From: Octopus sinensis
Lineage: Eukaryota
Reading direction: 5' to 3'
NCBI RefSeq assembly: GCF_006345805.1
Contig: NC_043000.1
Coordinates: 30,566,001-30,630,000, forward strand
DNA: 64,000 nt
The notes beneath the pieces are model-generated. The model was not told the origin of the DNA, ran no database searches, and saw only the letters and a list, made by a program, of their open reading frames with translations. Shown in pieces: positions 2,578-61,484 of this stretch; the first letter of the stretch is position 1, and each line of letters starts with the position of its first letter. The position numbers were made by a program, and so were the translations under genes.

Positions 2578-2766
2578 AGGTGCATGTGTGGCTGTCTGGT
2601 ACGTATCTTGCTTACCAACGTCATGGTTCTGGGTTCAGTCTCACTGCGTGGCACCTTGGCAAGTGTCTTCTTCTATAGCTTCGGGTCGATCAAAACTTTG
2701 TGAGTGGATTTGGTAAACGGAAACTGAACGAAGCCCGTCGTATATATATATATATACATACATACA

Positions 2767-2815
<49 letters not shown>

Positions 2816-3052
2816 ATATGTGTGTGTGTGTGTGTGTGTGTATGTCTGTGTTTGTCCCCCACCATCGCTTGACAACCGATGCTGGTGTGTTCACATCCCC
2901 GTAACATAGCGCTTCGGCCGAATAGGCCGCTAGAAGATGAACTAGGCATACAAAGAATAAGCCCCGGGGTCGATTTACTTTACTAATGGCGGTGCTCCAT
3001 CATGGCCGCAATCAAATGACTGAAACAAGTAAAAGGATAAAAGAATAAAAGA
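2578..3052 (+). mobile_element. SINE family B, near full length
   Basis: Head TGTGGCTGTCTGGT...GGTTCAGTC, GGCACCTTGGCAAGT, internal (TA)n(TG)n, A-rich short-repeat tail. Confidence 0.85.
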
Positions 3053-9659: not shown

Positions 9660-10135
9660 GACTGGCACTCGTTCGGTTACAACGACGAAGGTTTCAGTTG
9701 ATCCGAACAACGGAACATGGAAGTGGCTGAACACTCCATAGACACGTGTACCATTCATGTATTTCTCAGCGTAATACAGAATGTGACAAGGGTTGTCGTT
9801 TGATAGGCGGCGAGCTGGCAGCAACGCTAGCACTCCGGGCGAAATGCGTAGCCGTATTTCGTCTGCGGTTACGTTCTGAGTTCAAATTCCGCCGAGGTCG
9901 ACTTTGCCTTTCATCCTTTCGAGGTCGATAAATTAAGTACCAGTTACGCACTGGGGTCGATATAATCGACTTAATCCGTTTGTCTGGCCTTGTTTGCCCC
10001 CTCTGTGTTTAGCCCCTCGTGGGTAGTAAAGAAATCAGGGTGGTCCTTTGAATTATAGGTACAACTCACTCAATCTTGCCAGCTGAGTGGGATGGAACAA
10101 CATGAAATAACGTGCCTTGCTCAAGGATACAACGC
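9660..10135 (-). mobile_element. Older family C-type SINE remnant interrupted by a family A SINE
   Basis: Tail type 2 sequence on both sides of the insert; imperfect 15-bp TSD AGGGTTGTCGTTTGA (9789-9803) / AGGGTGGTCCTTTGA (10037-10051). Confidence 0.7.
9806..10035 (+). mobile_element. tRNA-derived SINE family A
   Basis: GGCGGCGAGCTGGCAG head, GAGTTCAAATTCC B-box, core GTCGACTTTGCCTTTCATCCTTTCG.GGTCGATAAA. Confidence 0.9.
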
Positions 10136-12380: not shown

Positions 12381-12616
12381 TGTGCGTGCGTGCGTGCGCG
12401 CATGTGTGTCTTCCCCTCGTCGCTTGATAATAGGTATTAATGTGTTTACGTCTCTTAAAATTAGCGTTTCGATAAAATAGGTGTTCTGGACATGAAATAG
12501 ACATTATAAAAGTGTTGGGGTTGATTTGTTTTACCTTCACTGTAGTGCTCCAGTGTGACCACCATTCCACTGACTGTACACGCCAAACTACTCCACAAGC
12601 CTATACAGCTAGAATA

Positions 12617-13016
12617 AGGCGGCGAGCTGGCAGAATGGTTAGCACGCCGAGCGAAATGCTTAGCGGTATTTCGTCTGCCGTTATGTTCTGAGTTCAAATT
12701 CCGCCGAGGTCGACTTTGCCTTTCATCCTTTCGGGGTCGATTAAATAAGTACCAGTCACACACTGGGGTCGACATAGTCGGCTTAATCCGTTTGTCTGTC
12801 CTTGTTTGTCCTCTCTGTGTTTAGCCCCTTGTGGGTAGTAAAGAAATAGGTATTTCGTCTGCCGTTATGTTTTGAGTTCAAATTCCGCCGAGGTCGACTT
12901 TGCCTTTCATCCTTTCGGGGTCGATAAATTAAGTACCAGTTTCGTACTAGACTCGATCTAATCAATTGGTCCCCTTCCTCAAAATTTCGGGCCTGGTACC
13001 TAGAGTAGAAAAGAAT
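12617..13016 (+). mobile_element. SINE family A tandem dimer
   Basis: Full unit, then restart at GGTATTTCGTCTGCCG (about 12849); imperfect TSD TATACAGCTAGAAT / TATGCAGTTAGATT around the whole dimer. Confidence 0.85.
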
Positions 13017-29672: not shown

Positions 29673-30910
29673 TATATATATATATATATATACATACACA
29701 TATATATTCTTTTAGTCTTTTATTTGTTTCAGATATATGACTGCGGCCATGCTGGAGCACAACCTTAACTCGAGTAAATCGCCCCCAAGAATTATTCTTT
29801 GTGGGCCTAGTACTTATTATATGGGTCTCTTTTGCCGAACCACTAAGTTACGGGGACATAAATACACCAGCATCGGTTTTCAGGTGATGTTAGGGGGACA
29901 CACACACAGACACAGACATACACACACATATATACGTGCATTAAGTGGTTACAGTATATTTTAAAAATGTAAAAGAAAATGAAATGTAGGGTAAACACAA
30001 CTTGTATTGAGCCCTCGTTCACCGGATTATGATACACGCACATACACAGGCGCGCATACATGCACATAAGCGCGTGCACTCTTGTCTTGTCACCAATCCA
30101 AGTCTTCCTCTGTCACATTGACTCTAACGATACTCACTCCCGCTACATATCTCTGTAAGTCTTTACATGTATGTCGTTACAATATAAGGATATGTATTTG
30201 ATTCTCATAAAATGTTACAAGTAAATGAGACTAGACGTGTACATTTGCATTCAAATATATATATGTATGTATTGATAAACACACTTATCGATATATCTAT
30301 CTATCTATGTATCTGTCTATCTATCTGTCTGTCTGTCCGTCTATGTTTCTAACACATCTATCTATATATCTTTCTGTCTACATAAAATTGTTCTGTGAGA
30401 GTGTCTGGTGTTTTGGCCCACCATGAAATGGTTTTAAGTGTCTCCTTTTCATTATGTTAAAGCGCTCAGTTTTATGTGAAATCATCTATCACTGTCGAAG
30501 AGGAAACTCTGGTGGTTGTTGATAAATTCAAATACATTAGTAGTACATTCTCCAGTTATGCTACACACGCAGCTGTATTGCTTGCACTAATGTATGTTTG
30601 CTAAACCACATGTACTGTCTGTGAAAGCTGTTAAATATTACCTAGCAAGACAAGGCCACACACATTGAAGTCCTCTCTTGAGCTGATCAACGAAGAGTTT
30701 ACACATTGCTGAAGCGATCGCAGGTGTCCTTCTTTGAATATTTGACAGACGACTACACAAAAGACTACTTACAGTGAACAGATAGAAAACAAGCGCGCAC
30801 AAGTTTGACAGAAAACGCGTTTCACAGATACTCTCAAAACCGTCCCTGAATCGCTTTCAGATCAACCCCTGATTCCTGGGAAATGGAACACAAGATCGCC
30901 CTGCCTAGAA

Positions 30911-31417
30911 ATGAAAGGTTTAGTCCACTTTGAACTTTTAAACCCAAACCAAACAATAAGAAAGGAGATCTACTACGAACAGCTTGAACGGCTTAAGTCG
31001 GTGCTAGAAGAAAAGCGACCATCTTTGGTTGCGGGACGAAAGGTATTCTACCATCAGGATAATGCTCGGCCACATACAGTGAGGATGACATTCCAAAGGC
31101 TTGAGCATTTTGAAAGGGAAACGATGCCCCAACAACCATATTCGCCGGTCATTGACCCATCTGATTATCAGTTATTTCGCAGTCTTCAAAATCATTTGGA
31201 CGGAAAAAATATGAATTCTGTAGACGAGTTCAGAACAGTACCGGAAGAGTATTTTTGGTCACAGACAAGGGAATTTTAGAAGAGGCATTGCAAGTCTACT
31301 AGAAAGATGGAAGAACATTGTAGAAAATGAAGGAGAGGATATTTTAGATTAAAAAAGAAATTAATTTTGAAAAATAAAAGAAGTATAAAAAACAGCATTA
31401 TTTATGGGATGACCCAA
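30911..31417 (+). mobile_element. Mariner (DD34D) transposase 3' remnant with terminal repeat
   Basis: KGLVHFELL...YHQDNARPH...PYSPVIDPSDYQLFRSLQNHLDGK; ends TTTATGGGATGACCCAA|TA. Confidence 0.95.
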
Positions 31418-31557: not shown

Positions 31558-31957
31558 CTTTACTCTTTTACTTGTTTCAGTCATTTGACTGCGGCCATGC
31601 TGGAGCACCGCCTTTAATCGAGCAAATCGACCCCGGGACTTATTCTTTTGTAAGCCCAGTGCTTATTTTATCGGTCTCTTTTGCCGAACCGCTAAGTAAC
31701 GGGGACATAAACACACCAGCATCGGTTGTCAAGCAATGCTAGGGGGACAAACACAGACACACAAACACACACACGCATATATATACATATATACAACGGG
31801 CTTCTTTCAGTTTCCGTCTACCAAATCCACTCACAAGGCTTTGGTCGGCCCGAGGCTATAGTAGAAGACACTTGCCCAAGGTGCCATGCAGTGGGACTGA
31901 ACCCGGAACCATGTGGTTGGTAAACAAGCTACTTACCACACAGCCACTCCTGCGCCT
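31558..31957 (-). mobile_element. SINE family B, full length, low divergence
   Basis: Head GGCGCAGGAGTGGCTGTGTGGTAAG, GGTTCAGTCCC, GGCACCTTGGGCAAGT, tail AAAAGAGTAAAGAG; matches 38388-38887. Confidence 0.92.
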
Positions 31958-34903: not shown

Positions 34904-35118
34904 AGGCGATTATCTGGCAGGAACGTTAGTACGCCGGGCGAAATGCTTAGTGGTATTTCGTCTGCTGTTACGTTCTGAGTTCAAATTCTGCCGAGGTCGA
35001 CTTTGCCTTTCACCCTTTCAGGGTCGATAAATTAAGTACCAGTTGCGTACTGGGGTTGATCTAAACTACTGGCCCACTTCTCCCAAATTTCCGGCCATGT
35101 ACCTAGAGTAGAAATGAA
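34904..35118 (+). mobile_element. SINE family A (alternative tail)
   Basis: Family A head and core; TSD ATATTTCGT(A/T)AAATTA. Confidence 0.88.
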
Positions 35119-35139
35119 TATTTCGTTAAATTATACAGC

Positions 35140-35574
35140 AGCTGCAGCGGATGTATGCTATACCGAGCATTAGCTAACACAAAGCGAGCTCTTCGGCAGC
35201 AAGACCACTCAAGACTTCATACCGCTCGAATGACCCGGAATAAACCCCTGGAATTTGAAGAAACCGAACTTATGGCACATCCAGCATATAGATCGAACCT
35301 AGCTCTCTCGGAGGAATATTTGTTCCGATCCATGGCTCATTTCTTGCGCTCGTGGCACTTCATCGACCAAAAGTTGGTGGAAGCTTCATTGAAGTTCCTC
35401 ACCTCGAAGGGCAACAAGTGGTATCGGTATGGGATCAAAGAATTTGCAGGAATCTGGCTTCAGAGGATGTAACATGATGGCTTCTACATTGAATGCAGGC
35501 TACTTCCGTTGTAATTTGACAAATAAAAGCAAATAACTTACCGATATATTGCAAAACTTTTGAGTCAACAAAAT
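35140..35574 (+). mobile_element. Mariner transposase 3' remnant
   Basis: QQDHSRLHTA...HPAYRSNLALSEEYLFRSMAHFL (decayed QDNARPH and YSPDLAPSDYHLF). Confidence 0.85.
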
Positions 35575-38387: not shown

Positions 38388-38561
38388 AACAGGAGTGGCT
38401 GTGTGGTAAGTAGCTTGCTTACGAACCACATGGTTCCGGGTTCAGTCCCACTTCGTGGTACCTTGGGCAAGTGTCTTCTACTATAACCTCGTCCCGACCA
38501 AAGCCTTGTGAGTGGATTTGGTAGACGGAAACTGAAAGAAGCTCGTTGTATATATGTATAT

Positions 38562-38594
<33 letters not shown>

Positions 38595-38887
38595 GTATAA
38601 TATATATATATATATATATATACATACATATATATATATGTATGTGTGTGTGTATGTATGTGTATATATGTTTGTGTATCTGTGTTTATACCCCCAACAT
38701 CGCTTGACAACCGGTGCTGGTATGTTTTCGTCCCCGTAACTTAGCAGTTCGGCAAAAGAGACCGATAGAATAAGTACTAGGCTTACAAAGAATAAGTCCT
38801 GGGGTCGATTTGCTCGACTAAAGGCGGTGCTCCATGCTGGAGCACGGCCACAGTCAAATGACTGAAACAAGTAAAAGAGTAAAAGAA
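38388..38887 (+). mobile_element. SINE family B, full length with expanded internal (TA)n
   Basis: Colinear with the reverse complement of 31558-31957. Confidence 0.92.
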
Positions 38888-39294
38888 TTGTAATCAACAG
38901 AATTACTGTCTTTCGTTATTGCGAGGGACGTTATACAACGGAAAACCACTGAGATGACGAGAACTATATGGTTCTGGGTTCAGTCCCACTGCATATCACT
39001 CTGGGCAGGTGTTTTCTACTATGGCCATGGGCGTGCAGAGCCTTGTGAGTATAATTAGTAGACGGAAACTAAACAAAGCCTGGCTTATACATACACACAT
39101 ACACACATTTCGTATCTTTGTGTTTGTGTTCCTCTACCCAAACCGCTTCACAACCGGTGTTGTTTTGTTCACGTTCCCGTAAGGTAGCGTTTCGACAAAA
39201 GAAATCGATAGAATAAGTATAAGGCTTGAAAAAAGAATAAGTATCAGTATCGATTCGCTTGACTGAAAATTCTTCAGCATGAAATAAGTAAACA

Positions 39295-41329: not shown

Positions 41330-41890
41330 TTTCGCTTTTGGATTTGGTTTGCAAGATTCTTTATGTGAGTTCGTGTGTTGATGCACATTCTGTTGTGTCA
41401 GGGGAGAGTCATTCTCTTTTTGTGCCTTATAATTTAACACACCCACCGGTAAAATTTCCACTTATTTCTTTTTTATTTTTTTTTATTTTTCTAAAAATTT
41501 TGTTGCGTCTTGCAACCTTTTCAAATTTATTGAAAAGGTAGAAAGACGCAACGAACATTTTAGAAAAATAATTTTTAAAAAAATAATATGAATGGAAATT
41601 TTACTGGTGAGTGTGTTAAATTATAAGGCACCTAAAGAGAATGACTCTCCCCAGACACAACAGCATATATATAAAATATAAATTGGAGATAAAACCACTA
41701 TTATGTTTTATAAAAATATATAATATTTGTTATTTATGTATTGGTTTAAGTCTATCAATGTTTGAGTTGCATAATAGCGGTTTTATCTCTAATTTATGTT
41801 TTATATATTTATACTGTGAAATTTGACTTAATAATAAATTGAATTTTTCCCTATAAGTTTGGAGTTATACTCCCTAATATTATTATTATT
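41330..41890. mobile_element. Cluster of Penelope-like LTR fragments with a 280-bp hairpin (41388-41666) and hammerhead-like motifs at its apex
   Basis: Arms CTGTTGTGTCAGGGGAGAGTCATTCTCTT / AAGAGAATGACTCTCCCCAGACACAACAG; apex consensus TTGAAAA G GTTGC AAGAC GCAAC GAAA; second inverted pair 41668-41704 / 41770-41808; TA-rich flanks. Confidence 0.6.
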
Positions 41891-42566
41891 ATATATATAT
41901 ATATATATATACTATCCACTCTCTAATTGTTTTAGTATCAGCACATTGTCTCAGATCAAATCACTTACTAGACAAATAAGAGTCTGAAAACAAATTGAAG
42001 CAATTTATTTGAATATGAACTACTCCAAATCTAAGATATGAAGGTTACTTTGCATATTTCGAAACGTGAAAGCGATTTTAATAGGTGTAGAAGTGAGATT
42101 AACTTCGGAAAGTAGTTTCTCTGCCTCTAATATGTTATTGATGTGAAACAGAAGGGAAAATGTTTGAGGCAGTTAATATCAGTAGCAAATTGTTAAAGTT
42201 ACACATGAGTGGACTGCATTAACTTCCTACACGGAAAACTCTTCTTTCCTTGTATTAGCTTTTGGTCGCTTCATTAAATTATGAGCACATGAAAGGTGTT
42301 ATAAGTACCTGAGCGGTATTGTTATATTATACTGTATACGAAAACGGTGGACAGTTTTCTGTAACTGGTGAATTACCGAAATATCAAAAGTGCCCTCTAG
42401 CGACGGTCAACATTTATTAAGATAAATCTTTCATTTCAAGGATACTCAAAGAGTCTTACCTCTCTCGCATTTATATGTATCCGGTATATAATAAATAGAT
42501 CGATAAGGAATATAGCGCTACCAATCGTTTTCTCTCTACTTCTTATAAGTAGGTATGTGTATGTGC

Positions 42567-48259: not shown

Positions 48260-49000
48260 TTAGAAATATTGTGACTTGGATTGTCTGCAGTGTCTTTGAT
48301 CTGGTTTATCACGGTAAAGTGTCCAGCAATAGTTAGCCAGCGTACTGTCATTCCAGATGCCTTGGCACAGTTTCTCCATAGCACTAATGTCCTGGTGGAA
48401 TCTTTCACCATATTCATCAGACACTACTCTGAGGTTATCGGCGAAGAAATCCAGATGGAAGTCCAAGACGTGAACTTTCAGTGACATGCGGGAACCCATT
48501 GCAGAGTAACATTTCAGAAGATCCTTGATGCAATCCTCGTAGTCCACTGCCTTCTTGTTGCCCAAGAAATTCTCAAAGATCCATTGACAGTATTCCCGAC
48601 AGGCAGTTCCAGTTTATCAAGGGTTGTCTTGAAACTGGCATCTTTGAGTACTTTTCTAATTTGGGCTCCGACAAAGATACTCTCTTTCAAATTTGCCTGT
48701 GTGATGTTGGGAAACTTTTCTACAATATACTCAAACCCTCTGTTATTTCTCTTCCCTAGTGTCATTACAAGCTGTTTCATCAGTCCAAGCTTTATGTGCA
48801 AAGGAGGAAATAGGACATTACATGAGGTGTATTCTTGATTCTCGACAGTCCTGGCTGGTATGATGATCTCGGCTGCCAGTTTGAATCCAAATAATGTCTC
48901 TCAGTTGCCCGTCTATCCCATAGACACAAGAAACAACAGTATTTTGTGAAACCTGACTGCATTCACATTAACATTCCATTGACTTTTCGAGCAGCACGCT
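48260..49000 (-). mobile_element. Frameshifted DNA transposase, probably Chapaev3-like
   Basis: QSGFTKYCCFLCLWDRRA, LHIKLGLMKQLV, IFVGAQIRKV, MSLKVHVLDFHLDFF, VSDEYGERFHQDI, ANYCW; the motif series is clear, the superfamily name is from recall. Confidence 0.8.
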
Positions 49001-53729: not shown

Positions 53730-55021
53730 CTAAAAGAAAAACAAAACAATATTTTATGCACGAGTGTACATATGCTTATACAGATTTATACACATGTATC
53801 TTCCCAGGCTTTTAAAGTAGGGATTATGTTTTTCTTGGTGTAGAGAAAGCCTTGATAGAATTTTGTATAATATATCGACTTCTCATAATATACAGATTTC
53901 CTATCATATAAATAATCTCTGAAGCATTGCCTTCATAGATTGCAACGGATCATGCCACAGATTGATATAGAATACTTTTAAATGTTACGTCACTTGTCGA
54001 AAATATATCGATAGATTCGGATGTTTTATAGGAATTCTTATTAAATGAAAGAACGACGGTGTAAAAATGCCTTATTCAAGTATTATGCTAATGTGAATTA
54101 ATTTGCATCAAATAAGTGAATATCGAAATCGATTAATCACATTTATTTGGGTCTTTCTTTGTTAAGTCAATGACTGGTAGTTACTCACATGAGACACAAT
54201 ATATTCAAGTATTGATTTCCATAGCAATAGTTTTACCAAATTAATCTGAGTACACATTCGGGTCGTATGCAGTGCAATATATATTGAAAATATGCATTAA
54301 TCGCTCCACAGTGTTTATCTTTATTATGTATTTAGTCGGACATTGTATTTATACCTGTGATCAATAGCGTCTCTATTCTGTGGCACGAGAACAAAATTTA
54401 CAGGCAAGGCAATTTCATTTTCCATTTTGCACTAAAAATAATTACATCACCATTGCTCCGATCGTTATTTCTGATAAATAAGATCGATTACTATCGTCTA
54501 TTACATTCGTAGTAGAAGTGCAAACGTTAGAGAAAGGAATTTATATCGGAAATTCAAATGCTTTATTTCGTTTACAGGATATCTCACAATCATCGGGAAC
54601 GTTTCAAAACCTAAATATCTAGGACAGGCACAATTACGGGAGACTACCCACCGTCTTATAAATTATAAATAGAATGTGTCCCATCATTTTGAGGCATCCT
54701 GAATATATTTGTAGATGTTTTGGTTAGTTGTTTTCGTCTTAGGGCCAAGGTGAAGCTGAAGTACAGCTTTTAAGCATTTAGTCTATTGTATCAGTCATGG
54801 AACTTAAGTAGTTTTTAACCGCTAGTCCAAAAACAAGGATATGGATCAGGCGTATAAACAAACCATCAACTCGTGCCAAGCCTCATGAAGAGACAGAAAC
54901 ATAAAACCGCATAAACACAACGATGCACACTCACACACACGCCGTTCGCAAATACACGTGTGTGCGAGTGTATACAGTGTATATAGATATATATACATAC
55001 ATTTGCATACAAAACAAGGTG

Positions 55022-55053
<32 letters not shown>

Positions 55054-55059
<6 letters not shown>

Positions 55060-55477
55060 TAAATTAGGGTATCTACGAGATACCGCCATGCTGAAAATAT
55101 CAGCCATGATCTGACTTTAAAACCACCTAAATTGTTCATATATCAACACGAAGAGAAAACACAAAGAGACAAGATGAAACTAGTAAAAAATTACTGGATA
55201 ATTCTAGATCCGAATTTTTGGCTTTGCATTTATGAATGCTTTGCCTCGTCAGTAGAATACACACAGAAGATAAGCATAAATACATATATATATAAATACA
55301 ACATACGAATACTTACATATACGAACGTATACCAACATATATATGCACGTATGCATCATGGCCAGTTCAAAATGCCCGCCGTTTCATTCCATGTGAGATA
55401 TGGTCAAAATATCGTCGCAGTAAATATAGTAGGAAATAAATATAATTCATATAAATAGGGTAAGATCGTTAATTTAA

Positions 55478-55480
<3 letters not shown>
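55054..55480 (-). mobile_element. Hammerhead-bearing Penelope-like/retrozyme element, same family as 60801-61258
   Basis: Minus ATTCTA CTGACGA GGC AAAGCAT TCATAA ATGC AAA GCC AAAAA TTCGGA TC TAGAAT (55201-55258); body homologous to 61021-61165; (TA)n flanks. Confidence 0.75.
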
Positions 55481-55547
<67 letters not shown>

Positions 55548-55634
55548 CGATAAGATCGTTAATTTAAATATATATATATATATATATCTAGTAAAAATAT
55601 TTTCCCTGTAAGTTTGGATTTATTCCCTAATATT

Positions 55635-55670
<36 letters not shown>

Positions 55671-55674
<4 letters not shown>

Positions 55675-55820
55675 AGTAATTTTTACTAGATTCATCTTGT
55701 CTCTTTGTATTCTCTCTGTGTTGCTATATGGACACTTAAGCTGGTTTTAGAGTCAGATCATGGCTGCTATTTTCAGTATGGTGGTATCTCGTAATGCCTT
55801 TATTTGTAATTTTGATAATT
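55671..55820 (+). mobile_element. Inverted partial copy of the same element
   Basis: ATCCAGTAATTTTTACTAG...AGTCAGATCATGGCTG...GGTATCTCGTA is the diverged reverse complement of 55054-55200. Confidence 0.8.
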
Positions 55821-55887
55821 ATATATATGTAATTACTTACTTCTCGTTATATAAGGTCTTAGCAGCATAGCAACATCATATCTATAT

Positions 55888-56339
55888 CGTAGCAGAACGT
55901 TTAATCACCATATTTTTATTCCTGGATCAGAAGATCATAACGTTGTAACTTGTACTCATTACGTTTCGATGTATTTGCACTTTTTTAATGAATGTAAACA
56001 CCAAAATCATCTATGAAACTAGATATTGGCGTCGCACCTAGTCGCTTTTTAACAGGCATTCTTACTGTGATTTTAAATAAATTTATCCAAATTCCCTTAT
56101 TCCAACTTCTGATAACAACTGAGAGACTAAGAGAATTTGGATATGTTTGTTTAAAATCTTAGTAAGATTGCTTGTTAGGGAGCGACAATATGCCACTCCT
56201 GTATCTATTTTGATAGAAACATTTGATGCTTGCGCTCATCAAAAAAGTGCAAATACATCGAAACGTAACGAATACAAACTACAATGTTATGACGTAATGA
56301 TTTAGAAATAAAACTATAGTCAATAAACATTCTGTTACG
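55888..56339. repeat. About 450-bp imperfect palindrome (fold-back/MITE-like)
   Basis: TTACGTTTCGATGTATTTGCACTTTTTT vs AAAAAAGTGCAAATACATCGAAACGTAA; ATCCAAATTC vs GAATTTGGAT near centre 56115. Confidence 0.85.
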
Positions 56340-56910
56340 CTGAAAATCACATGAAAATATTCCGTTTAGTTTCTATGTTATAATAATGTGATTATTTATC
56401 TCAATTTCCACTTTAGATATTCATACGAATGGTGTGAATGCCATAGAGTTGAATGCTCCTTACAATATAATGCAAGCCTAAAGAAAACATTATTATCTTC
56501 CACGAAGAGCAGTAGTCTTTTTTTATGGATGCTTTCATTTCAGGATTCCTATTTTTATTGACATATCTTCCAGAAATAAGTAGCACGAAATAACTAAGTT
56601 CTGGTGACATTATATTTAAAACTGTACTAGAGTACCTCTGTTTTTCTTCCGGGGATAACTCACTTAATGTTTAAGAAATAATTACTTATTTCAGTTGGAC
56701 TGAAATAAATCTGTGTTGCACTTGATGGTAAAGATAATTCTGCCCAGTGTATATAAAGTAGGTTACAGTACGATATGATCACAATATCCATGTACAAATT
56801 CGATTATTTAGATGGGTTGCTTTGCGTAATTTCAGTACAGAGAAATAATCGCTTTATGATAAAGTCGGATCAAAGGAAATGGAAGAGATTATACAAACTT
56901 CTTATTCATC

Positions 56911-56924
56911 GTTGCTATGGTAAC
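56911..56924. promoter_or_regulatory. RFX X-box-like motif GTTGCTATGGTAAC
   Basis: Matches GTTGCCATGGCAAC-type consensus at 12 of 14 positions in repeat-poor sequence. Confidence 0.3.
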
Positions 56925-59019
56925 GTTCTCTTACAGGAGCTTATCTTAGACAACGGTTAACATGATGACAAGAAAACATATAAATTCGCTTTCATCTGAT
57001 TGATTAGTTAGTGGGTGTTATGGACGGGATTTCAATGCAAGAACCCTATTTGATGATAGAAATGAATGCCTTGATGGAGTTACTAAAGGATTCTTCCACA
57101 CCATTTTAGCAATAAGATTTGATTATTCTTCTACAGCTTCACGCCTATAGAATGCTGCCTGAGATGTAATCCTGCCTATATCACAGAAGGAAACTTAAAT
57201 TAGTCTTTCAAAATGGCGCTTCACAATCCAGTCTGATAATGTGTAGTATTGCCAATCATAGACACGTTTAAAAATTTCGATTTAATATTGTGTCCAATAA
57301 AATAAATATTAGCAGATTTGCAAAGATTTTTATGTGTTTAATCCCTTTCTATATCTTGTTTACATTAAGTAGCTGGACCGTATATTCTCATAAATTATTC
57401 CAGAAATCTTTAGATCCTTGTAAAACATGAATGCTGCACAGTTGTCTTTTAATGTTTACGAAATATGAGGTGGTAATAAATTAAGTTTTAACTGTTATAA
57501 TAATAATTATGAAGTAAATGATGAAATTTGTGTAAATTGAGTTTACATGGAGGAAATACGAAAATATAAATATTTGAGGGTTAATAAAAGTTTTGCTTAA
57601 AATGTATTTTTGCAACCAAAGTAAATCTACACCATTTCATGATTATAATAATGAGGATGCCTTTCCTTAGCCTTTCAAACATTCTCTTTGGATACAAACC
57701 AAACAAATATGTGTGAGCAGTAATACTATAGATATGCAGTTGACTAGATTGCTGTAATATTCTTTTCCAGCTCTCTATGAATACACAGTTAAAAACAATT
57801 ACAAGTTAATATGTTGTGATTCCAATAAATACATGTGGCTTTTGTTTCTTTTCAACTAACCTCAAGTGCTCGGTATTTAGGGATTACAGAACATTGTTTT
57901 TAATGCTTTCATTTAAAAGAATGGTCTGTGTCTTTATTCTTTGCATGTCAAGCCAGATACAAGCCGATGGCCACAGATAGACATGGAATGGTGGGATTGC
58001 GATATGGAGAATAGAAGAAACGAATAATGTAGAATCTGGAGCATTGGAATAATATGGGTGGTGAAAGGAGGAAAAACGGATCAAGAAAAATGGCCGAAGT
58101 AGAATTGAAATGAGACCAGTTTCATTCTCAAATGAATGCATCCATAAAAACAGGGCTGCTTTCGTGCAAAGTTATAATGTTTTCTTTACACCTGCATAGA
58201 ATGGTAGGGAATATAAGACTCGATAGGACCCATATCTTCCGTATTAATATTAGATATGTCAAATGAGAAAAATAATGACATTCTGTAAAATAGGAGCTAA
58301 ACAAAATATTTTGAAGTAATTAGAATGCGACTTGTCAGACGCTGAACGTTTCTCTTTCGATAACAGCAGAGAGAATCAGGTAATTTAGATGGATTTCTTT
58401 ATTTAACATTGGGGCAAACATGTTTCACCAACCTAAAGAATGACAGTGACTAACAGCAGTGGAAGAGATTTAACGAGGAAACAACACCTTTGTAGACGAG
58501 AGCTTGGAGTGTTTTGCAGAGAGATTTCACGAAATTCAGATGGGTTGCTATTTATCGATACATAAATATTTATATTGAAACTTATTTTCTGCTTTGTGTT
58601 CTTATTGGTCAAAATTCTCTCCTTGATATTAAAGTCTAACATGTGTGTAAACAAGAATCACGTGGAAAACAAGGAGTGTTTGTTATTTCTGCCATGTAGG
58701 ATAAAAGGTACATATTAATATCTTTATAGATTTCATGTATGAAAACAAGAGAAGATATTTACCTGTGAAATACAGTAAAGTGTTTAAAACGCATATACCT
58801 GAATATGCGCGTATAGAAGCCGGAAGCTAAGAATTGTATACACACACAAATTCGTTGTGAGTTGAATATTAATAATTATTATGGTGTTTATATATCCATG
58901 TGGATTCTATGAGCCTAAACAGTGTGAATTGCTAAATTGGTGATACGTGTCATTCAATTGTATTTTCAAAAACTGAGTTTTACGTAAACGTTGCACCACC
59001 ATATCCAGCTGAACGATAT

Positions 59020-59235
59020 CGGTTTCAAATTTTGACACAAGGCCAGCAATTAAGGCTCATGGGATGAATCATTTACATAAACACCAATGCATTACTAGTA
59101 CTTGTTTTATCCACCGCGAAATGATGACAGGCAAAGTCGACCTCGGTAGTATTTGAATTCAGAACGTAAAGACAGACGAAATGCTGCGAAGCACTTTTCC
59201 CGACTCGCTAACGATTCTGCCCAGCTCGCTGCCTT
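59020..59235 (-). mobile_element. SINE family A, older copy
   Basis: Head and core on minus strand; TSD ATCCAGCTGAA at 59003-59013 and 59237-59247. Confidence 0.85.
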
Positions 59236-59265
59236 AATCCAGCTGAAAACAATATCAACAATATA

Positions 59266-59502
59266 CAGTAATCCCTCGAGTATCGCGGGTGTTACATTCC
59301 CAAACTCCCCGCGATAGGTGGAAATCCGCGAAGTACAAACAGTACTGTACTGTATATACTTTAAAATTATTTTTATAATTTGTATATATTTATTTTATTA
59401 TAAATGCAAAACAACATCACTGTAGACTCGACGTAATCTTAAATGATAATCCGTGATAGATGAACCGCGATAGGTTAACCACGATATGGCGAAGAATTGC
59501 TG
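59266..59502. mobile_element. pogo/Tigger-like MITE
   Basis: TA|CAGTAATCCCTCG ... CGAAGAATTGCTG|TA; subterminal CCGCGATAG repeats. Confidence 0.8.
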
Positions 59503-60011
59503 TATACTATTGCACATATTACATTTACTACGCAAAATACTTAACTGTTGTATAATATACTTCACAGTCAATCATCATAAATGTCCTGACCTCGAAACTT
59601 AATTTTCTAACCCAGGACTCTCATTCATTTAAGTTCTTAATGAAGTTCAAACCAGTGTCTAATAAGCTATCAAAACGATTTAAGACAGATCTCGGGGTTT
59701 GTAAATCAGTGGCATAAGTTACTGTTTGTATGTTTCGATGTGATTGTACCTGCACTTATTGTCTGTGTGAAGTTGTCACGTTAGTATTTAGGTGTGTCAT
59801 ACATTGGCATACATTTCTATGCATCATTAGATTCTATATATGTGTTTTTGTACTTGCACCCAAGCGTGTCTATATATTCCTTTAACGAATCTAATATGGA
59901 CAAACTTCGGCAAAAGTCTTACACGATTTCACGGCGCCGCTAATATATTATATTTGGAAGATGCGCGTTAGTTTTTTTGGTTTGGTCCTTCTTAGAAAAT
60001 CATGTGTGTGT

Positions 60012-60050
<39 letters not shown>

Positions 60051-60478
60051 GTGTGTGTGTGTGTGTGTGCGTGTGTGTGTGTGTGCGTGTGTGTTGATGT
60101 GGGTGTGTGTGTGCGTAAAAACACTTTTCAATATTAATGTGATCACTTTAAACCAGAGTTCAGACTCAGTACAGAATTGTTAAAGCTGTTCTTCTGTTGG
60201 GAGTACGTAAGGACTCTGAAAACACCGAGTAATATCGAGTCAATTATATATGTTGTCACCTCGAAATTTTGCTTTAAACCAATGCAAGAACTAAACATTT
60301 AATATCGGAACCACATTTGTATTTGAACAGCAAAATAATGGTAGTGTATCGATTTGCTGGATATTTTGGAATGAATAAAATATGAATAGACATCTTACAA
60401 GAAACCTATAGGAATGTGTACTTAACATGAAACAATTTGATTTTACTCCCTATTCCGATAAGTCGACTAAAGAAATTA

Positions 60479-60525
<47 letters not shown>

Positions 60526-60800
60526 TATATATTCTCTTAGGTATCGCGAGACCAATAGACAAATATCGCGGTGTAATTCTCAATGTACGTAGGTTTCAGA
60601 ATGCAAGCGTTAGCTGAGTGTAGAGCGATGATAAGAAAGAGAGATGCCAAAGGAATAAATGTTTATCATGTAAACTCCATTAGCTTGCAGCTGTTTCTGA
60701 TATCAGAAGTAGTGAACTCATGCCTGAGTGCCTGAATATCACCTTAACACTTCATCGGAGTGTGTACGTACATACATACATACATACATACATACACACA

Positions 60801-61258
60801 TATAATTTTAATAATAATTATTACCATTGAAGGTTTTTATTTCCATGCTAGCCACCTAATAAGATCGGTATTCAAATAACGATCTTATCCTTTTCTATAT
60901 AAATTTAGATATTTATTTCGTCATTGTATTCATATATCTACATTTATGTGCTATCTGAGTATATTCCACTGATGAAGGCAGAGCATTTCTTATGCAGAGT
61001 CAGAAATCCGGGATCTGGAATTATTCAGTAATTGTTTTGCTAGTTTATTTTGTCTCTTTGTCTTCTCTCCTGGTGCTGTATTAACATTTAATGTGGTTTT
61101 GGAGTCACGTTTTGGCTGCTATTTCCAGCGTAGTGGTATCTCTTAAAATACCTTAAATTATAATTTTAATAATAATTATTAGCTTTGAAGGCTTTTATTC
61201 CCATGCTGGCCACCTGATAATATTGGTATTTAAATATCGATCTTATCCTTATTTATAT
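60801..61258 (+). mobile_element. Retrozyme-like/Penelope LTR element, 358-bp unit present about 1.3 times
   Basis: About 100-bp direct repeats at 60801-60900 and 61159-61258; contains a complete hammerhead; ends in (TA)n. Confidence 0.8.
60963..61021 (+). ncRNA. Minimal type I hammerhead ribozyme
   Basis: Stem I ATTCCA/TGGAAT, core CTGATGA, stem II GGC..GCAT TTCTT ATGC..GTC, GAAA, stem III ATCC G GGAT, cleavage triplet ATC (cut after 61015); 10.1-11.1 is A-A rather than G-C. Confidence 0.75.
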
Positions 61259-61260
61259 AT

Positions 61261-61311
<51 letters not shown>

Positions 61312-61484
61312 TATAGAATGATTGTCGTCATTTCTTTCTCTTTTGCCTGCGTTGTTTGCCTTTAAGTGCTGTGGTTTTACTGGGATCTCCCTTTTAAGTA
61401 GAAAGAATAGCCATAACTCTTTGACTGCTATTTCTAAATTCGGTGTGTGGTGAGGCAAATCGTTGCTAAACCCTTAATTACTTA

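Follow-up and report, generated by a model that had tools for sequence, protein, structure and literature searches.

Two diverged copies of a type I hammerhead ribozyme have kept their core-proximal base pairs within one AT-rich, microsatellite-rich stretch of animal-type sequence, the 64,000-nucleotide window of the Octopus sinensis genome analysed here, and the RNA fold was likely under selection while the family was active. The copies, one on each strand, are probably end fragments of a Penelope-like element (PLE), from its pseudo-LTR end, or of a non-autonomous derivative of one. This link is structural only, because a Pfam scan of 102 of the 346 long frames in the window (E 0.01) gave no reverse transcriptase (RT) or GIY-YIG match. 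The ribozymes and the arms of stem I in the minus-strand copy are as follows.

55201 to 55258, minus strand: type I hammerhead of copy A (motif reading, pairing, folding and descriptor search)
55253 to 55258, minus strand: 5' arm of stem I in copy A, ATTCTA, with the changed base T55254 (C60967 in copy B)
55201 to 55206, minus strand: 3' arm of stem I in copy A, TAGAAT, with the changed base A55205 (G61017 in copy B)
60963 to 61021, plus strand: type I hammerhead of copy B, with all core letters (motif reading and descriptor search)

The first-pass annotation had described the two motifs as sisters with a compensatory change in stem I, and its letters proved correct at every place compared. 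Stem I is ATTCTA/TAGAAT in A and ATTCCA/TGGAAT in B (6 bp, 60963-60968 with 61016-61021), the double change between C-G and U-A falls on pair 5 of the stem (T55254-A55205 in A, C60967-G61017 in B), the free core position N7 differs (C55248 against T60973), and a GCAT/ATGC stem is identical in the two copies with a different loop. Both copies have the core C3 U4 G5 A6 N7 G8 A9 (CUGACGA at 55252-55246 in A), U16.1 and H17, the A15.1-U16.1 pair and an open 6-bp stem I. In copy A, stem II consists of 3 bp, a 3x3 internal loop and a further 4-5 bp, stem III is short and self-complementary (55215-55208), C17 is 55207 and the cut is predicted at 55207/55206; the predicted cut of B lies at 61015/61016. 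The series G12 A13 A14 A15.1 is complete in B, where G12 is G61003, and the reported decay of GAAA to AAAA in A is real, with G12 replaced by A at 55218. Since G12 is the hammerhead general base (PMC6155905), copy A has lost a key catalytic letter and its ribozyme, judged from these letters, is likely inactive.

The copies share one departure from the textbook core and differ in several other places. In both, an additional A stands between stem II and G12 (55219; 61002) and stem II does not join G12 directly, as hammerhead criteria ask in excluding insertions or mispairs beside the core (PMC3088659); the core variants described in the available part of that paper name no insertion between 11.1 and 12. 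No deletion was found at 61002 among the 12 listed rows of variants from public contigs. A further A after A9 (60976) occurs in copy B and is absent from A. In the proximal part of stem II one pair is altered on a single side, being G-C in A where B has G-U. The 3x3 internal loop of stem II reads AGA/AGA in B but AAA/AAA in A, so that opposed unpaired sites have both changed, and the sequences of stem III with its loop and of loop II are unlike. A possible distal stem I in copy A has a T.C mismatch as one of its five pairs. Neither copy stands out in folding energy (z -1.75 in A and 0.12 in B); stems I and II of A are predicted to form with a probability of 0.6-1.0, the minimum-energy fold of B is other than the hammerhead, and the predicted pair probability of stem III in the monomer is at most 0.01.

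The wider family was read from contigs of four of 24 public runs, aligned to the B monomer (60890-61247) as reference. Two of these, X1 and X4, are DNA runs; for X11 and X20 an RNA origin is no more than a guess. The alignments comprised 2640 contigs in X1, 3008 in X4, and 111 and 22 in the RNA-guess runs. Summed depth reached 143,300 in X1 and 451,300 in X4, against 7-50 for single long contigs, which suggests a family on the order of thousands of copies, as read from summed depth and not from copy number. The letters A60981, A60997 and C61000, in which A differs from B, had a share of 36-47% in X1 and in X4; should a jump in depth at 61000-61004 reflect clipped A-like contigs, they may even predominate, at up to 72-75%. 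The lack of the extra base after A9, as in copy A, also recurs in the family as deletion rows at 60975-60976. Contigs of 1691 bases (X1) and 1695 bases (X4), from differently labelled organisms, both cover 60932-61071 and are possibly one shared insertion. A 75-base stretch at 61028-61102 has intron-like ends in the family majority, but an intron there was unsupported, with no such joint among those listed. Searches for further copies gave no match for two motifs in metagenome contigs and genome contigs, and none for one motif in viral contigs.

We then weighed the retained pairing against chance. Copies A and B differ at 11 of 57 positions inside the ribozyme and at 28 of 145 outside it (3' of the ribozyme), 19% in both cases, and this equal divergence counts against selection. 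In a chance model, B was mutated at the outside rates in 200,000 trials and 16 core-proximal pairs were followed. At least one compensatory pair arose with P=0.21 among the 16 pairs and P=0.09 among the six pairs of stem I, and a single compensatory change is therefore weak evidence. On the other hand, all 16 pairs are intact when A is compared with B, against an expectation of 3.8 broken (P=0.012, post hoc), and with the distal stem added one of 21 is broken (P of at most one, 0.026); these retention P values are optimistic because the pairs were chosen with both copies in view. We regard the overall retention as moderate evidence for a selected fold, stronger than the double change; purifying selection would have preserved the pairing in master elements. 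The annotation had drawn selection of the fold from the double change; the conclusion likely stands on the unbroken pairs, but the change it cited is insufficient.

Variants in the family add detail. None of the 12 core positions appears among the common variants listed in X1 and X4 (40 of 73 rows). Five common ribozyme variants are listed in both DNA runs: three lie in loops, one preserves pairing and one is at position 61017 itself; the enrichment in loops (3 of 17 positions, against 2 of 42 elsewhere) is not significant (P=0.14). The G12>A change of copy A is absent among the variants listed (40 of 73, with one further G>A row per DNA run unlisted), and likely arose within A after insertion.

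The history of the stem I pair itself is best read from position 61017. G61017>A has a depth share of 9.0% in X1, 12.8% in X4 and about 7% in X11, and none of the X20 contigs over the site carries A. Shares of this size mean that most copies, the A-like ones included, carry C-G at this pair, and that the 3' member of the double change has either recurred or been inherited. RNA editing or strand bias was rejected as a source of the G/A excess (P=0.06-0.63 in the four runs). We favour, with some reserve, the reading that U-A is an inherited sub-lineage variant of the majority C-G pair, reached via a U.G wobble. The competing explanation, to which we give appreciable but smaller weight, is that two neutral transitions occurred independently and that U-A in copy A is a coincidence. 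The chance probability of such a pair given above and the X20 contigs would agree with coincidence, as would the stem II loop, where the joint G/G to A/A difference of opposed unpaired bases shows that paired-looking double changes arise without Watson-Crick pairing. The partner change C60967>T, moreover, is absent among the variants listed (40 of 73 rows, both DNA runs) and must be below 4% in X4, because all three C>T places at 4% or more are accounted for elsewhere; set against the share of G61017>A in the same run, this tells against tight linkage. That comparison is biased, however, because A-like contigs are under-sampled at 60967: they passed the 80% filter in 7 of 38 simulated 60-base windows at 60967, as compared with 40 of 40 at 61017. 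Coincidence also has to face the unbroken pairs and the frequency of G61017>A, which at 9-13% at a non-CpG site exceeds that of G60999>A (about 2%) and thereby suggests inheritance. The comparison of paired sites covers two full copies, family variants being unphased between 60967 and 61017, and a search for phasing through chance translations of family copies gave no candidate.

The ribozymes lie in longer element copies, which were delimited by self-comparison of the window, together with the microsatellites at their ends.

55052 to 55480, minus strand: element copy A
55290 to 55425, minus strand: stretch of about 127 bases upstream of the ribozyme, present in A and absent from B
55536 to 55570, minus strand: another short copy of the 3' end of the element, lying within the TA microsatellite upstream of A
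55670 to 55822, plus strand: copy C, inverted, 5'-truncated and without ribozyme, head-to-head with A and 86% like it
60801 to 61270, plus strand: copy B, a partial tandem of 1.3 units of 358 bp with one ribozyme only
55022 to 55055: TA microsatellite bordering A on its outer side
55478 to 55672: interrupted AT microsatellite between A and C
60765 to 60802: TACA microsatellite bordering B on the left
61250 to 61315: TA microsatellite bordering B on the right

Copy A resembles B in two blocks, at 55301-55052 with 60924-61168 (75.6% over 254 columns) and at 55480-55433 with 60869-60919 (82.7%). In copy B, 60801-60912 recurs at 61159-61270 with 86.6% likeness and a period of 358. The likeness of copy C starts six bases 3' of the predicted cut site, and this start adjoins a TA run. 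Since all copy ends adjoin microsatellites, any target-site duplication is masked. The stretch present in A alone has no other match within the window; one of its minus-strand frames reads NGGHFE, which may resemble the C-terminus of some Tc1/mariner transposases. The piece between A and C at 55586-55675 matches 41845-41918 at 88%, both ending in a TA run, and is either an unrelated short repeat or another element end.

Other repeats are also present. Directly after copy C, 55888-56339 forms a long, imperfect, MITE-like inverted repeat (74% over 312 columns), and a second inverted pair lies at 56345-56546 and 58124-58321. The window also holds at least two abundant families of short interspersed repeats, 75-95% alike, at 997-1347, 2588-3046, 9805-10035, 12616-12963, 31559-31957, 38390-38888 and other places. 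Eight of the 102 frames scanned had any Pfam match and one was above the cut-off, a mariner transposase fragment at 30809-31276 (PF01359); pieces of mariner-like appearance at 35107-35472 and 48514-48900 had no Pfam match.

The assignment to PLEs rests on ribozyme traits and on insertion structure. The traits described for PLE hammerheads are a long helix II, G10.1-C11.1, an extra base after A9 and a short self-complementary helix III (PMC4209133); copy B has all of them and copy A all but the extra base. The helix III trait is reflected in predicted self-duplexes of -9.9 kcal/mol in B and -5.1 kcal/mol in A. A dimer built on a perfect loop III palindrome was considered and rejected, the family majority matching the near-palindrome of B. 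For PLE insertions, an adjacent inverted 5'-truncated copy, partial tandems and a bias to microsatellites have been reported (bioRxiv 2021.04.23.441226), and all three were observed here in the A/C pair, in B and in the flanks. Against this reading stand the extra A before G12, the minimum-energy fold of B and the outcome of the Rfam searches described below, as well as the 358-bp unit, which is of retrozyme size.

In active elements of PLE type, tandem copies would be transcribed, two ribozymes would pair through the short self-complementary stem III into a dimer, and the tandem precursor RNA would be cleaved after C17, likely in the dimeric form. A PLE reverse transcriptase/GIY-YIG protein would then mobilise the RNA, and target-primed reverse transcription into AT-rich DNA would yield copies that are truncated, inverted and partly in tandem. 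Selection on pairing would act in master copies only, and inserted copies would decay, as the loss of G12 in A suggests. Ribozyme mutants of the PAc element still insert in vitro (PMC11167929).

The main rival to this assignment is a non-LTR retrozyme, in which two hammerheads would release a 358-nt unit from a tandem transcript, and a PLE enzyme would re-insert it after circularisation. We consider it unlikely, although the two labels are close and the rival differs by degree, because retrozymes derive from PLE pseudo-LTRs (bioRxiv 2026.07.22.740005). The 358-bp unit falls in the retrozyme range of 170-400 nt and fits mollusc retrozymes of about 350-390 bp (PMC7229834), copy B is longer than one unit, a 6-bp stem I with a short stem III is canonical type I, three end-to-start joints are listed in X1, and pieces of the family occur in both RNA-guess runs. 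Those joints have a depth of only 8-27, however, and none is listed in the RNA-guess runs, while opposite-strand joints predominate (12 of the 15 listed, of 19 in all) at scattered places. Neither locus has two tandem ribozymes, the criterion of bioRxiv 2026.07.22.740005, copy B offering 1.3 units and one ribozyme. Self-pairing of the monomer is unexceptional (z -0.85 linear, -0.78 circular; a weak test, being one decayed copy), and the upstream part of B (60902-60937) has less than 1% of peak depth. We did not take this fall in depth before the ribozyme to prove 5' truncation, since A-like flanks undergo clipping, and with inversion joints scattered the idea that copies start at the cut site was unsupported as well. 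On balance, fragments of PLE pseudo-LTRs account for the insertion structure better than a tandem retrozyme would.

Whether the motif is a hammerhead at all was addressed with a descriptor (core, stem II of at least 3 bp, stem III and stem I) that either required G at position 12 or allowed G or A. Within the window it matched B alone in the first form and A and B alone in the second, with no match in 60 shuffled windows at three settings. Rfam gave no hammerhead match at the gathering score in the 64-kb window, and none among the 29 matches up to E=10 in 54900-61400. An accidental likeness in an AT-rich repeat of another class, which the Rfam result, the unremarkable folding scores and the extra A within the core might suggest, is very improbable given the empty shuffles, the complete core of B, the pairing retained across 19% divergence and the PLE-like structure. 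Elsewhere in the window, the minus strand at 1500-1575 has an unrelated hammerhead-like stretch in which CUGACGA is accompanied by a G-C-closed stem II that runs straight into GAAA, and by what may be a stem I of 6 bp; its stem III fails the descriptor, which gives no match there, its folding z is -1.07, and it is possibly a decayed motif of another family.

The nearest known systems are the hammerheads of metazoan PLE pseudo-LTRs (Cervera and de la Pena 2014, PMC4209133), above all those whose helix III is small and palindromic. Shared features are the type I topology, a helix II of 7-8 bp with G10.1-C11.1, the extra base after A9 (in copy B), the short self-complementary helix III, and dispersed single motifs in truncated copies of high variability. 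Unlike those described there, both copies here have an additional A separating C11.1 from G12, a 6-bp helix I and a helix II interrupted by a 3x3 internal loop; loop III of B is only near-palindromic and no linked PLE frame was found. The non-LTR retrozymes of Mytilus galloprovincialis (PMC7229834; bioRxiv 2026.07.22.740005) are similar in type I topology, a length of about 358 bp and low GC, and metazoan non-LTR retrozymes also in numbering thousands of copies (PMC7229834), an order of magnitude inferred here from depth; they differ from the present family in the two-ribozyme tandem, in that inversions dominate here, and in the high self-pairing of the monomer. With Poseidon PAc of Anolis carolinensis (PMC11167929) the family shares AT-rich insertion sites and preferred ends downstream of the ribozyme, but the repeated end piece is about 90-110 bases in B as compared with a tail of 30-40 bases in PAc. 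An ATG at 60992 in stem II precedes the predicted cut by 24 bases, against 26 in PAc, and, unlike in PAc, no open frame follows it in A or B. Three A/B differences are silent in this frame, yet both copies then meet stop codons, family variants farther along are non-silent, and a coding start was rejected.

Hammerhead motifs of PLE type are already well known in animals, where their families are documented as full of covariations (PMC4209133). Penelope-like families have been reported in Octopus vulgaris, with no ribozyme mentioned in the available part of that paper (PMC13282606), and our search of the open-licence literature found no paper on cephalopod hammerheads. As it stands the finding is therefore of little significance, since PLE hammerheads with compensatory changes are documented and copy A is likely dead. 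A more far-reaching reading, to which we attach a low probability, is that the family represents an active natural core variant in which an additional A flanks the base of stem II on either side, maintained in thousands of copies. It would have spread, perhaps in the form of a 358-nt circular RNA, in a cephalopod-like lineage for which our searches found no described hammerhead, and the U-A pair would mark one selected sub-lineage. If core-intact copies do cut, the extra A before G12 would widen the known natural hammerhead core and would explain why Rfam models and strict descriptors miss so large a family.
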